From the NCBI RefSeq assembly GCF_030013595.1, contig NZ_CP122772.1: a stretch of DNA of 64,000 nt. One strand, 5' to 3'. This DNA comes from Escherichia coli. Lineage in GTDB: Bacteria; Pseudomonadota; Gammaproteobacteria; Enterobacterales; Enterobacteriaceae. Made by a program: the position numbers. Numbering within the stretch: the first letter of the stretch is position 1; every line of letters begins with the position of its first letter. Positions 54,001 to 63,000 of the stretch are shown here, piece after piece.

Positions 54001-57000
54001 TCCACTGGAGACGCCGGAAGCTCGCTGCCAAAGCGGCGTTCCACTGCTCCCAGCATGACGTCCTGTACTGTTTCACTGTTGAAGCCACCCGTTGTGACCG
54101 CCCAGTGCAGTGCCTCACGATCACAGCAGTCCAGCGCGAACGTGACCCGCAGTTTTTCTCCGTTATCACAGCGGAACTCAAACCCGTCAGAGCACCATCA
54201 CTGATTACTTTCTTTCACAGCCACTCTGCCGGTATGTGCCCGTTTCGATGGCGGTACAGCGGGTTTTCGCTCAAGCAACAGCGCATTCTGGCACATGATC
54301 CGGTAAACACGTTTGGCATTGATCGCAGGCATACCATCAAGTTCTGTTTGTCTGCGAAGCAGCGCCCATACCCGACGATAACCATATGTGGGCAGCTCTC
54401 CGATAACATGATGTATACGGCGAAGCACATCCGTATCATCCGTGTGACGGCTGCGGCGGCCGTCCTTCCAGTCATCGGTTCGTCTGAGAATGACGTGCAA
54501 CTGCGCACGCGACACCCGGAGACAACGGCTGACGAAGCTTACTCCCCATCCTCGGGCAATAAGGGCGCGTGCGCTATCCACTTTTTTGCTCGCCCATATT
54601 CAACGGCTTCTTTAAGGAGTTCATTTTCCATCGTTTTTTTGCCGAGCAGGCGCTGGAGCTCTTTAATCTGCTTCATGGCGGCAGCAAGTTCAGAGGCAGG
54701 AACGACCTGTTCTCCGGCAGCCACAGCAGTAAGACTTCCCTCCTGGTATTGCTTGCGCCAGAGAAATAGCTGGCTGGCTGCCACACCATGTTGCCGGGCA
54801 ACAAGGGAGACCGTCATTCCCGGTTCAAAGCTCTGCTGAACGATAGCGATCTTTTCCTGTGTAGTACGCCGTCTGCGTTTCTCCGATCCTAAGACATCAA
54901 TCATCTGTTCTCCAATGACTAGTCTAAAAACTAGTATTAAGACTATCACTTAAATAAGTGATATTGGTTGTCTGGAGATTCAGGGGGCTAGTCTACCAGG
55001 ATTGTTTATCTCATAAAGCATGATGCCACCACGCATCAGAAAGTAAAAATATTAGTGAATATGCAATCATACTCTAAAATATGAGGACCAATTTTGTTGG
55101 TAATGACTCCAACTTACTGATAGTGTTTTATGTTCAGATAATGCCCGATGACCTTGTCATGCAGCTCCACCGATTTTGAGAACGACAGTGACTTCCGTCC
55201 CAGCCTTGCCAGATGTTGTCTCAGATTCAGGTTATGCCGCTCAATGCGCTGAGTATAACGCTTGCTGATAACGTGCAGCTTTCCCTTCAGGCGTGATTCA
55301 TACAGCGGCCAGCCATCCGTCATCCATACCACGACCTCAAAGGCCGACAGCAGGCTCAGAAGACGCTCCAGTGTGGCCAGAGTGCGTTCACCGAAGACGT
55401 GCGCCACAACCGTCCTCCGCATCCTGTCATACGCGTAAAACAGCCAGCGCTGACGTGATTTAGCACCGACGTAGCCCCACTGTTCGTCCATTTCAGCGCA
55501 GACAATCACATCACTGCCCGGTTGTATGCGCGAGGTTACCGACTGCGGCCTGAGTTTTTTAAGTGGCGGAAAATCGTGTTGAGGCCAACGCCAATAATGC
55601 GTGCACTGGCGCGACATCCGACGCCATTCATGGCCATATCAATGATTTTCTGGTGCGTACCGGGCTGAGAGGCGGCGTAAGTGAACTGTAGTTGCCATGT
55701 TTTACGGCAGTGAGAGCAGAGATAGCGCTGATGTCCGGCGGTGCTTTTGCCGTTACGCACCACCCCGTCAGTAGCTGAACAGGAGGGACAGCTGATAGAA
55801 ACAGAAGCCACTGGAGCACCTCAAAAACACCATCATACACTAAATCAGTAAGTTGGCAGCATCACCAATTTTGTTATGCACGCCCAAATGCTATAGCCAT
55901 GACTTAATTCCATCCAACTCCGACAATGTTTCATCTTGCAGTTTGAATCAGCATGCTACCGCCCTTCCGGAAACTACCCGTAAACCGGGACCAGAATCTT
56001 GAAGGAGTGAGTTTGGATATGGAAAATTATTGTACGGCAAGACTATTTTTTGAACATACTTACCTACAGCTATAAGGTGCACTCCCGCGCTATACAGCAT
56101 TTTCAGGAAATTTGACTTTAATCGGATAACCTAAACGCGATAGCGCAAGAGCAACAACTTAAAAGCGATAACCGCTGACGCAAAATTAATCTGTTACGCA
56201 TCGAAACTGGTTAAATAATACACTTAACGTACAGAATTTTCCGATCTCCAAACAGCCCCCTTGAATAACAAATAAATCAAACCAGAGACCACTTCAATTT
56301 AAACATAATAAAATAATGCCCTGTAAGTATTCAATGCAGTGGGCATATCTATTGCTATACTAATTTTGTTCTTTTTCTATCCATTCCTTTCTATCCCATT
56401 ACCACACAAATGCGAATAATAATTATCACCCTTGTAATCAAGAGGGAGGGGGATGGACTTCGCTTGGAATTCGGAAAATAAACCACGTTAAGGCTACTTT
56501 TTATCCAAATAGCGTTTGGGAATCGCCAGAATGGTGGGACAACAGCGGTTCTGGTGGTAAGCGCCTCATCTGAACCGTCTGGTCTGTTTCCTCCGGCTCC
56601 ACAAAAATAATGTCCATCGATAGGAATTTAAATCCCAAAAAGATTAAAAAAACACCCAAAAACGGATGTTTATTCGACACTGCCTGCGTGCCATGAGTGC
56701 ACCGCCATCAATTAAATGGATCTTATCGAGTGATACTGTATATCACTGATGGTTTTTTACTCCATTCCCCTGAAAATGGACGCAACTTCCCCGATGCGGC
56801 TCTCAGCCGCACACCCGCTGTTGCGCCAGTGGCTCATGCATCAGGACCAGCTCTGTCAGACGGTAGCCCCGCTTCAGCCCCGTAAAACGCATCTGACATC
56901 CGCACAGGATGCACTTTAGCGGGTCAACCTTCAGTAACCGCTGATACATCCCTCTCCACCTGATTTGCATCGCCGTCTTTCTCACCGTCTCCGTTATGAC

Positions 57001-60000: not shown

Positions 60001-63000
60001 CCAGAAAGAACGGAATACCCAGGTCAGCGCAGCACTCAACGGCATCGTCAAAATTATCAAAGCGCAGAACTTCAGCGTCTTCTTCGTCAAAAAAATCATC
60101 CGGATGAAGTTTCACAACATAGCGGGGAAGTTTGCTTCTTTGTGGTGCGGGTTTGCGTTTACGGGGTTTAGCTGAACGGGCCATATAACTACCTGAAAGA
60201 CAATGACATTATCTTTTTTTATAACGGTAATTCCAGACCATGACAAGCCGCAGCCGCCAGGCTGCCTACTCGGTCGTCGTCAGCTCGCTCTGTTTATCGC
60301 GCTTGTGCTGGGTATTGGTGCGGGTGGGGCAGGAACCTGGATGGTATCCGAGATGAACCTGAAGAAAGCCCCGCCGGCAAAAGCCCCAAAAGGCGAACCT
60401 GCGCCGGATATGACCGGGGTGGTCAATCAGTCCTTTGACAATAAAGTCCAGCGTTCCGCCATTGCGGAAGCCCAGCGTCTGAACAAGGAAACGCAGGCTG
60501 AAATTAAAAAGCTACGTACAGAAATGGGAATTATCGGGCGTGATCTGAAAGGCTCTCAAGAGCGTATCCGTGAGCTGGAAGATGAAAATAAACTCCTGCA
60601 GACACAAATCGAAGCCGGGAAGAATTTTGACTCTCTCAGTGCTGAACCGCTGCCAGGGGCACTCGCCTCACAGGGAAAACCTGCAGCACAGGCCGGTGAT
60701 ATTCCTCCCCCGACCACTTTCTGGCCCGCCGGTGGCGGACAGGCTCCTGCCGCCCCGGTGATGACCCCGGTTCAGCGTCCGGGAATGATGGACAGCCAGG
60801 AATTCACTCTGCCGGACATCGCTCCGGAAAAGCCCCGTTTCCCGTGGATTTCCTCCGGTAGTTTTGCCGAAGCCATTGTGGTGGAAGGCGCTGATGCCAA
60901 TGCCTCTGTCACCGGCGATAAAAATACCGTCCCGATGCAGCTTCGCCTGACCGGCAAAGTTCAGATGCCTAACGATCAGGAATTCGATCTAACCGGGTGT
61001 TTTGTGACTCTCGAAGCCTGGGGGGATGTTTCCAGTGAACGGGCCATCGTCAGGACCCGCTCCATCAGCTGCAAGCTGGGTGATGACAATATCGACCAGA
61101 AGATTGCCGGTCATGTGTCCTTTATGGGCAAAAACGGCATCAAGGGCGAAGTGGTCATGCGTAATGGTCAAATCCTGCTGTATGCGGGGGGATCAGGCTT
61201 TCTTGATGGTATTGGGAAGGGCATTGAGAAAGCCTCTTCCACAACCGTGGGCGTTGGAGCTACTGCCAGTATGAGTGCCGGTGAAATCGGTCAGGCAGGG
61301 GTCGGTGGCGGAGTCAGTTCTGCGGCCAAAACACTCTCTGATTACTACATCAAACGTGCTGAACAGTACCACCCGGTGATTCCGATAGGTGCGGGCAATG
61401 AAGTCACCCTGGTTTTCCAGGATGGCTTCCAGCTTGAAACGCTGGAAGAAGCCCGCGCGAAAGCGGCTGCACGCAAGAAACAAAATCAACCATCAGTCTC
61501 ATCTGCGCCTGCTGCCATGCCCGGCAACACGACGGACATGCTTAAACACCTGCATGACTTCAGGCTGGGGGATACCGTCGACCCGGCTACAGGCCAGGTT
61601 GTCACGCACTAAGCGGGAGCCGGAATACCGGCCAGAATCACACAATCCGGATCAGTCAGTGCCCTGAAAGACGTGAAAGGGATGGGCGGTAGCGTGTCCG
61701 GACAGAGTAAACAAGGAGAACCGATGGCTGACGTACTGGATCATTTACAGAAGCAGGAAGACCTGCTGAACCGGCTGCATATTCAGGCCGCCCGGCAGTT
61801 GCTCATAAGGGATGGGGAAAGCCTCAGCGAGTGTGAATGCTGTGGCAACGACATTCCTCTCAAACGCCAGCAAACGATACCTGGTGTACGAACCTGCACG
61901 GAATGCCAGCGGGTACTGGAAATCCGGCAAAAACACTACCTGAGGTGAAGGATGAAAAAAGGAAAGGCAATGTGATGGTGCCGGTGAAAACCGGCAGCAG
62001 TAAGACCGTCATCTCCCACACCTTTTGACGCCTGAATGACAAGGAATACTTCAATGAACAAATACACCTTTCTGCTGGCAGGCAGTGTCCTGCTGTTGAC
62101 CGGCTGTGCCGGCGTTAAAAGCAACTTTGACTGCGATGCCACAACGTCTGATACCTGTATGACCATGACGAAAGCCAATCAACTGGCACGGGACAAGGCG
62201 GCAAAAAATACGGGAAAGTCGGCTGCGGGCGGACTGCCTTCCCTGGTTAATCTCCCGGCCACTTCTGCTGCGGTTATTCCGTCAGCATCCCGCTCCGCTG
62301 CCAGCATTTCTTCCGGTGTGCAGGTAACCAGCGACAGGCCGACAGTATCAGGCAGCACAGCTGCGGGTACAAACACGACCGCCACAACGTCAACACTGGT
62401 GCACCGTCCGGTTACCGAAACGCCGGTAACACCAGTTTCGCGTCCGGCTGTATCCGTGGGCAATCTGGCGCCCTCATGCCAGAACGTGCGTTGTGATAAT
62501 CCCGGCTCTGTACATCCTCTGCGCAGCCAGGATCGCATAGCCACCGTCTGGATTGCCCCCTGGGTGGACAGCGATAACGCTTTCCATCAGCCCGGTCGGG
62601 TCTCCTTTGTGGTTACCTCTGCCGAATGGCTTCTTCCGTCCCGCATAAACTAAGGAGAGTCAGGTGAAAAAATTTCTGAGCGTGCTGGAGAACCTCACGA
62701 ATGCTTTCCGGATGCCGGATGGTGCATCTGAGATGACGCGCAATCTGGCCAGCCTGGATTTTCCGCAGCTGACCAGCGTCCTGCCGTATCGCGACTATGA
62801 CCGTGACTCCGGGCTGTTTGTGAACCGCAGTACGGTTGGTTTTCTGCTGCGGGCGGAACCCCTTATCGGTGCTAACGAACAGATTGTGTATGTGCTGGAA
62901 GACCTTATCAAAAGCAAGCTGCCGCGTAAGACGCCGATTTCCTTCCACCTGGTATCCAGCAAACTGATTGGCGGTCAGCTTGATCGCGGCCTGTCTGAGT

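Follow-up and report, generated by a model that had tools for sequence, protein, structure and literature searches.

A head-to-tail tandem of two IS91 variants beside a haemolysin operon is an ordinary arrangement that probably arose by integration at an IS91 end

Introduction

How do two different variants of a rolling-circle insertion sequence come to stand head to tail with no spacer between them, and do their junctions call for anything beyond known IS91 transposition? The question is raised by a pair of IS91 elements in a 64,000-nt stretch of Escherichia coli DNA (contig NZ_CP122772.1; hereafter the window), where the pair adjoins the hly operon in the setting of a porcine F18/haemolysin IncF plasmid. 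IS91, the prototype of which comes from E. coli alpha-haemolysin plasmids, is an HUH/Y2 rolling-circle element with an orf121-tnpA gene pair (PMC13181058). Its integrating form is solely a bottom-strand single-stranded circle with a ter-ori junction; its terIS is cleaved at CTCG only (111 mapped events); and read-through of the terminus, that is, one-ended transposition, makes up 11-53% of events (PMC13181058). In mating-out experiments the targets are CTTG (46-51%), GTTC (41-46%) and GTCC (about 5%), and CTCG is used in vivo in 1-1.7% of events (4% in one condition); in a survey of database targets, CTCG ranks third, after GTTC/CTTG (PMC13181058).

Results

Two IS91 variants in the window

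The sequence ATCGATAGG occurs six times in the window, as compared with 0.38 occurrences expected from shuffles, and an IS91-type copy begins at each occurrence. The copies, numbered from left to right, belong to two variants, A (1828 nt) and B (1829 nt), between which there are 175 substitutions and 1 indel, corresponding to 90.4% nucleotide identity:

15175-17003, + strand: IS91 variant B, 5' tetranucleotide CTTG, 1 mismatch relative to copy 6
21551-23379, - strand: IS91 variant B, 5' tetranucleotide GTTC, identical to copy 6
32018-33845, + strand: IS91 variant A, 5' tetranucleotide CTTG, identical to copy 5
44187-44940, + strand: oriIS-side stump of IS91 variant B, 754 nt, after CTTG and just 3' of hlyD
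56616-58443, + strand: IS91 variant A, 1828 nt (copy 5)
58444-60272, + strand: IS91 variant B, canonical IS91 type, 1829 nt (copy 6)

Copies 5 and 6 form the tandem, variant A followed directly by variant B. The 754-nt stump is also present in plasmid p15ODTXV, which in addition carries a unit 100% identical to copy 5, labelled 'IS91 family transposase' (WP_000937591.1), and a unit 100% identical to copy 6, labelled 'IS91-like element IS91 family transposase' (WP_000937614.1). To count as an IS91 isoform, an element must reach at least 95% identity to IS91 V1, X17114.5, in its nucleotide sequence and likewise in TnpA (PMC13181058); with 90.4% nucleotide and 94.9% TnpA identity, values measured against B, variant A probably falls outside that definition.

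Each member of the tandem has intact tnpA and orf121 genes and the ends of an IS91 element:

56803..57990, - strand: tnpA of variant A, 395 aa, with HPHIH (HUH motif) and Y249/Y253 intact
57990..58355, - strand: orf121 of variant A, 121 codons, its stop overlapping the tnpA start (TGATG)
58421..58443, + strand: terIS of variant A, folding as a hairpin (GCAGCC-GCCA-GGCTGC) followed by CTACTCG
58632..59819, - strand: tnpA of variant B, 395 aa, with the HUH motif and Y249/Y253 intact
59819..60184, - strand: orf121 of variant B, 121 codons, with the TGATG overlap with tnpA

At the tandem, the + strand of the window is the transposed ('bottom') strand, with oriIS (ATCGATAGG...) at the left and terIS (...CTACTCG) at the right. 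The retention of HPHIH and Y249-x3-Y253 in both proteins identifies them as HUH/Y2 rolling-circle transposases, and both match the NCBIfam equivalog NF033538 (287 bits for A and 290 bits for B; cut-off 125). Every full copy runs from ATCGATAGG to GCCTACTCG, and none shows duplication of its flanks; asymmetric ends, a terIS hairpin with CTCG and the lack of any visible target-site duplication place the copies in the IS91 family.

The first-pass annotation had described the tandem members as different variants, and had on that ground excluded a simple read-through dimer. Both statements hold. Between the two TnpA proteins, 20 of 395 annotated residues are different (28 of 410 codons in mechanically called ORFs), and between the Orf121 proteins 7 of 121; 176 aligned positions distinguish the two units, each of which has an identical, dispersed copy elsewhere in the window. 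In the nucleotide alignment of the copies that had been proposed for mapping variant SNPs and mosaics, copy 5 is pure A and copy 6 is pure B at 176/176 variant-informative columns, with no mosaic boundary, and a mosaic origin of either copy is rejected. The terminal 21 and 35 nt and the ter hairpin are the same in A and B, and a block of 56 nt is identical across any tandem junction; crossovers through this block could go undetected.

Tetranucleotides at the junctions

The tetranucleotides on the oriIS side of copies 1-6 are CTTG, GTTC, CTTG, CTTG, GTCC and CTCG, as first read, and copy 6 abuts the terminal CTCG of copy 5 with a spacer of zero: CTCG at 58440-58443 is both the last four bases of copy 5 and the tetranucleotide 5' of the variant B oriIS. 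All six flanks are in the published list of IS91 targets (CTTG three times; GTTC, GTCC and CTCG once each). The description of the tandem's junctions as non-canonical is therefore not sustained, since GTCC and CTCG are measured minor IS91 targets (PMC13181058), and the junctions require no new mechanism. CTCG is nevertheless used inefficiently in vivo: the chance of hitting one particular CTCG is only ~1e-4 per insertion, calculated for this 64 kb from tetranucleotide choice alone, and either IS ends may be preferred, or another route may contribute. Tandem Repeats Finder, the longest period of which is 500 nt, is blind to units of this length.

The outer flanks of the pair

56557..56615, + strand: 59-nt terminal stump of an ISCro1-like IS66-family element, 100% match to intact IS66-family ends
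60273..61612, + strand: traB, 5'-truncated, with its breakpoint after a canonical GTTC of the intact gene

The last four bases of the stump, GTCC (56612-56615), adjoin the oriIS end of variant A. We rejected the reading of this GTCC as a mutated GTTC: intact IS66-family copies read ...aataatGTCC|ATCATTTTTAATGG, and GTCC is therefore the native target sequence. On the other side, intact traB reads ...aaaatcGTTC|GTCGTCGTCAGC at the breakpoint; traB is broken exactly after GTTC, and this flank therefore derives from a different, canonical IS91 insertion. The IS66 right flank, like traB, is preceded by GTTC in intact sequence. The outer flanks of the pair are non-cognate, and since traB follows a canonical GTTC, the pair was linked to it by homologous recombination involving copies of variant B. 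The genes traL/E/K were not found in the window, and the B-terIS/traB junction had no record in either of the two collections searched.

On its right side, the GTCC insertion would have terIS|ATCATTTTT (terIS|IS66 nt-60) as its cognate junction; this sequence was absent from PLSDB records, and empty-site queries (GTCC-left plus gtttttc-right, c3-left plus c3-right, c1-left plus c1-right) gave no contiguous match, so that the original insertion sites could not be reconstructed. In every plasmid examined, it is A that adjoins the GTCC of this IS66 left flank. Single-copy A is present at GTCC in pEC571_2 and in about 20 further matches, the latter assigned by A-type protein name only, and no GTCC-B junction occurs among the loci examined or the 40 best matches. 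The taaataatCTTG flank is joined to B in the window and to A-B in CP057734.1.

Occurrence of IS91 tandems in other plasmids

Far from being singular, the arrangement proves to be common. The window's 200-nt A-B junction recurs with 100% identity in at least 25 independent complete plasmids, mostly of pig origin and collected in several countries, and at least 25 finished plasmids share the A-B junction together with the window's left flank. All four junction types exist (A-A, A-B, B-A and B-B), as do arrays of 3-4 units: at least 22 plasmids share a 100% identical B-B junction, and A-A, a triple A*-A*-A*, and the arrays A-B-A' and B'-B-A-B were found. The A-B pair stands behind at least five different ori-side flanks, four of them canonical (CTTG or GTTC), and one plasmid can contain two A-B pairs. 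Relatives also contain clear A/B mosaic units with internal breakpoints, and these mosaics show that recombination between the variants is active. The window, pEC571_2 and an S. flexneri plasmid have reciprocal flank patterns.

The 16-mer CTACTCGATCGATAGG, searched in public genomes and metagenomes as proposed at first pass, gave mostly chance matches in unrelated phyla, with IS91-like DNA in only 3 of 92 loci (L043, L071 and L073), and a 33-mer junction query had no match among species-representative genomes. We discarded 693 records with at least 80% coverage of a 4.3-kb query, inasmuch as one IS can match both halves of it. We conclude that the mixed A-B tandem is real but ordinary, and that both of its junction tetranucleotides were already known as minor targets.

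Discussion

Probable origin of the tandem

We think it quite probable that the A-B pair is a conserved unit by the hly operon that was formed by integration at the cleavage site of an IS91 end and subsequently had its flanks shuffled. In this reading, IS91 TnpA acts on single-stranded DNA and cleaves on the 3' side of a tetranucleotide; its sites are the oriIS junction, terIS (CTCG^) and the targets, which are CTTG^ or GTTC^ and, less often, GTCC^ or CTCG^. The bottom-strand circle inserts without duplication. A zero-spacer tandem would result by either of two routes: integration of the circle at the terminal CTCG^ of a resident copy, or integration at the tetranucleotide retained before a resident oriIS; both would give a junction identical to the circle junction. 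One element's circle probably used the cleavage site at the other's end, with B entering at the terIS CTCG of A, and the order we favour would have A inserting at GTCC inside the IS66-family element and B being added at A's CTCG. Later homologous recombination between copies would have shuffled the flanks, and the pair may move as a unit, with A terIS read through and transfer stopping at B terIS. Of the two origins offered at first pass, insertion of one IS91 at the end of another best fits the junction; recombination between copies cannot by itself join two pure units with zero spacer, but it accounts for outer flanks that are non-cognate, the traB side being one example.

In one alternative, B was resident behind GTCC and A integrated later at the same GTCC^: the target tetranucleotide would not be consumed and would persist as a nick site for TnpA, re-use of which would give the same zero-spacer tandem, and in vivo GTCC is used about 3x as often as CTCG (PMC13181058). 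The adjacency of taaataatCTTG to B in the window, as against A-B in CP057734.1, is consistent with such an order. However, single copies at the IS66 flank are all A, GTCC-B being absent at the loci examined and in the 40 best matches, and we regard the reverse order as unlikely. We consider it quite unlikely that the pair reached GTCC already joined, as a 3.66-kb unit mobilized through A terIS to B terIS. The reported frequency of read-through would allow such transfer, and the variety of ori-side flanks before A-B and the presence of two pairs in one plasmid are as expected for it; but recombination among copies of A relocates flanks too, and the reciprocal patterns of the window, pEC571_2 and the S. 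flexneri plasmid are of this kind; an A-B pair with contiguous cognate flanks was not found, and on this proposal the junction would simply have originated elsewhere.

It is more doubtful still that a homotypic concatemer, A-A or B-B, came first and had one unit swapped by homologous recombination or gene conversion. Homotypic tandems are common, the mosaic units prove exchange between A and B, and the 56-nt identical block across the junction could accommodate a crossover; yet purity of the window units at all 176 informative sites leaves only the short identical ends as a place for the two crossovers, whereas the observed mosaics break internally. An assembly artefact, in the form of a collapsed or chimeric repeat, is very unlikely. 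Assembly through six near-identical repeats in 64 kb is difficult, and the B-terIS|traB junction was seen in this window alone; against this, the same A-B junction, with the same left flank, recurs in independent finished plasmids, and traB is broken exactly where a real IS91 insertion would break it.

Integration at an IS91 end, the reading we prefer, permits a broader and distinctly more tentative proposal: both terIS CTCG^ and the tetranucleotide^oriIS junction of resident IS91 copies may be strongly preferred by incoming circles, and mixed arrays of two to four units may be built in this way and spread by terIS read-through, which would explain the third rank of CTCG. Targeting of IS91 ends is not stated in the literature searched.

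Implications

The CTCG class in database target surveys probably consists of downstream tandem members. Mixed IS91 arrays are documented here on porcine haemolysin, F18 and enterotoxin plasmids, where the arrays and frequent recombination between copies keep rearranging virulence and transfer regions, as with the truncated traB of the window; 1.8-kb repeats in tandem are, in addition, a recognized problem when assembling from short reads. The practical value of these results is modest, and the one modestly new point is the possibility that IS91 integrates preferentially at IS91 ends.

Comparison with known systems

Among relatives of the pair, IS801, IS1294 and IS1294b are likewise rolling-circle elements of the IS91 family, and GTCC is a listed IS1294b target; they differ in having no orf121 and in a terIS cleavage tetranucleotide of GTTC instead of CTCG (PMC13181058). 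IS801 is documented to transpose in a one-ended manner and to mediate plasmid deletions. Eukaryotic rolling-circle HUH transposons also form zero-spacer head-to-tail arrays (PMC5876387), but they have a helicase domain, and the usual interpretation of their arrays is that a single element has formed a concatemer, in contrast to the mixed pair described here.

The closest likeness is to IS91 itself. The protein of variant B has the NCBI name 'IS91-like element IS91', and the ends, the orf121/tnpA overlap (described for IS91), the target tetranucleotides, the hly-plasmid setting and the lack of target duplication are as in IS91 (PMC13181058). The differences are that variant A lies below the 95% isoform cut-off (PMC13181058), judged against B, and that IS91 is mainly single-copy on plasmids (PMC13181058), as opposed to six copies and a tandem here. 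The junction of the tandem, ...CTACTCG|ATCGATAGG..., has the abutted terIS-oriIS ends of the IS91 circle intermediate; here, however, it lies within a replicon and connects two different variants, not the two ends of one element.

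A tandem of two IS91 variants on a haemolysin plasmid

The window contains six occurrences of the nine-base sequence ATCGATAGG (0.38 expected from shuffles), each at the start of one IS91-type element, of variant A or variant B.

IS91-type elements and plasmid genes in the window
1154-8697, traD/traI
15175-17003, variant B, 1829 nt, one mismatch
21551-23379, minus strand, variant B, 1829 nt
32018-33845, variant A, 1828 nt, identical to the copy at 56616-58443
44187-44940, variant B stump, 754 nt, oriIS (start) side, after CTTG, just downstream of hlyD
45945-53193, minus strand, hlyCABD
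56616-58443, variant A, 1828 nt, copy 5, identical to the copy at 32018-33845
58444-60272, variant B, 1829 nt, copy 6

The tetranucleotides ahead of the ATCGATAGG end are, for copies 1-6, CTTG, GTTC, CTTG, CTTG, GTCC, and CTCG. The CTCG ahead of copy 6 belongs to copy 5, whose last four bases it forms; copies 5 and 6 therefore lie head-to-tail with zero spacer. A and B are 90.4% identical (175 substitutions and one indel), their TnpA proteins differ at 20 positions (annotated 395-aa proteins; 28 in longer mechanical ORFs), and their Orf121 proteins differ at 7. The first-pass annotation had described a tandem of two different variants, and its copies, tetranucleotides, zero spacer, and protein differences were all recovered.

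The TnpA proteins of both variants pass the NCBIfam IS91-family equivalog model and retain the HUH motif (HPHIH) and the Y249/Y253 pair, and both variants contain orf121 with a TGATG stop/start overlap. Their ends are identical over the first 21 nt and the last 35 nt, and share a terIS hairpin, GCAGCC-GCCA-GGCTGC, that stops 7 nt short of the cleavage point (terIS being the CTCG-terminated end). In plasmid p15ODTXV, NCBI names the protein encoded by units that match B at 100% identity 'IS91-like element IS91 family transposase' and that of units identical to A only 'IS91 family transposase'. We conclude that the pair comprises IS91 and a relative at 90% identity. The element genes are on the minus strand, and so the plus strand is the transposed 'bottom' strand: tetranucleotide^oriIS ... 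terIS-CTCG^.

The window is an F-like plasmid, and almost all of its nearest matches are porcine E. coli plasmids. Positions 32014-55136 are 99.2% identical to a stretch of p15ODTXV (Swiss, porcine) that holds F18 fimbrial (fed) genes and hlyCABD. With the stump at 44187-44940 on one side and the A-B tandem on the other, the hly operon is bracketed by directly repeated IS91 sequences. The 754-nt B stump is also present in p15ODTXV.

Tandem arrays recur among plasmids

A 200-nt query spanning the A-B junction had full-length matches at 100% identity in no fewer than 25 complete plasmids, making an assembly artefact very unlikely; the same query was at least 80% covered in 214 records. With synthetic queries, B-B junctions matched at 100% identity in 22 or more plasmids and A-A junctions, likewise at 100%, in 4 or more, and B-A junctions were found as well; these counts are probably inflated by shared ancestry. 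IS91 ends are present in 834 of 5426 complete E. coli genomes, and a 120-nt junction query was at least 80% covered in 230, about one-third of sampled matches being two-piece rather than zero-spacer junctions.

Longer arrays include a three-unit GTCC-A-B-A' array in CP057734.1 (12317-17802), which has a second A-B pair, and a four-unit B'-B-A-B array in p15ODTXV (NZ_MG904998.1, 5545-12859), which also has GTCC-A-B' (A' and B' being A/B mosaics). In NZ_CP027334.1, from human-stool E. coli, three A-like units with 98.2% identity to A follow GTTC with zero spacer (644-6128), a homotypic array compatible with rolling-circle concatemer formation. Plasmid pETEC_74 (strain E24377A) has a deleted B and then a truncated B, and three metagenome contigs contain tandems in which further variants take part. 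The occurrence of tandems in many independent records shows that the arrangement, A-B included, is real and recurrent.

In the metagenome contigs QZLS01000205.1 and QZLU01000188.1, a relative of IS91 at about 84% identity, with an internal deletion of roughly nt 1210-1413, directly precedes an A-like copy, probably a non-autonomous element ahead of an autonomous one. Separately, many plasmids (e.g. NZ_CP103744.1, 66407-66674) carry terIS and oriIS fragments inside 268 nt beside a DUF2164 gene; the arrangement is apparently a conserved remnant of IS91 and no true tandem. These plasmids come from, among others, ST131 E. coli, Klebsiella, and Salmonella, and range from about 65 to 135 kb among the matches listed.

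Junctions and flanks

Experimental mapping of hundreds of IS91 insertions in 2026 placed 46-51% at CTTG, 41-46% at GTTC, about 5% at GTCC, and 1-1.7% at CTCG (4% in one condition), with terIS cleavage always at CTCG (PMC13181058). The tandem's junctions, GTCC and CTCG, had been called non-canonical; both are measured minor targets and thus fall within documented IS91 behaviour. The left flank closes with 59 nt (56557-56615) that form the terminus of an ISCro1-like IS66-family element, and intact IS66-family copies read ...aataatGTCC|ATCATTTTTAATGG, so that GTCC is native there and a mutated GTTC is ruled out. The remainder of the ISCro1-like element, cut by IS91 at this GTCC, is absent from the window.

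The right flank (60273-61612) is traB without its first bases, and in the intact gene the breakpoint directly follows the canonical target GTTC; in two other plasmids the post-B flank lies inside an IS66-like element, likewise right after GTTC. The B-terIS|traB junction had no record in two collections searched, and traL/E/K were not found in the window, where traD and traI are present. The flank sequences indicate that the right flanks derive from other, canonical IS91 insertions and were joined to the tandem by homologous recombination between IS91 copies. The transfer region is broken by IS91-mediated rearrangement.

Related plasmids combine one small set of flanks differently: in pEC571_2, GTCC and a single A are followed by gtttttc, which in the window follows the other A copy, and gcggttatCTTG lies ahead of a single A in the window but, in a plasmid of Shigella flexneri, ahead of an A-B pair. 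PLSDB yielded no contiguous 'empty site' for three flank pairs. A' is A to nt 1485 and B thereafter, and B' has an A tract at nt 253-701; these internal breakpoints imply recombination or gene conversion between A and B.

Origin of the A-B junction

Two origins had been proposed, insertion of one IS91 exactly at the end of another and recombination between copies. Recombination between dispersed copies cannot give a zero-spacer join of two pure units, and the suggested alignment found no mosaic boundary in copies 5 and 6, which are pure A and pure B at 176/176 informative sites. Transposition therefore accounts best for the junction, and of the two proposals insertion at another IS91's end fits best.

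The only integrating form of IS91 is a bottom-strand single-stranded circle with abutted ends (PMC13181058). Such a circle would integrate at a TnpA cleavage site supplied by a resident copy, either CTCG^ at A's terIS or GTCC^ kept ahead of the resident oriIS. The sequences favour joining of B onto A's CTCG, since in every examined plasmid with the IS66 flank, many of them single-copy, A is next to GTCC and none has GTCC-B. The cognate right flank, terIS|ATCATTTTT, has no PLSDB record, and the order of arrival is thus not proven.

With terminus read-through in 11-53% of events (PMC13181058), the A-B pair should also move as a single unit ending at B's terIS. At least five distinct ori-side flanks precede the pair, and one plasmid has two pairs, which is compatible with such movement; recombination also yields part of this pattern. 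If tetranucleotide choice were all that mattered, any single CTCG of the window would be hit with a probability of about 1e-4 per insertion. The abundance of tandems, probably inflated by shared ancestry, points tentatively to a preference for IS ends as sites or to the formation of concatemers.

Comparison with known systems

The tandem is confirmed as an observation and is explained by known biology; end-targeting by IS91 circles is an only mildly new idea. If true, it would also account for the CTCG class in target surveys. A database survey ranks GTTC and CTTG first and 5'-CTCG third, and finds IS91 mainly single-copy (PMC13181058); many of its CTCG 'targets' may be downstream tandem members, as at 58440-58443 in the window. 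No description of IS91 tandem arrays was found in the literature searched. The internal junction of the tandem has the sequence of the known IS91 circle junction, and rolling-circle transposons such as Helitrons are known for their head-to-tail arrays (PMC5876387).
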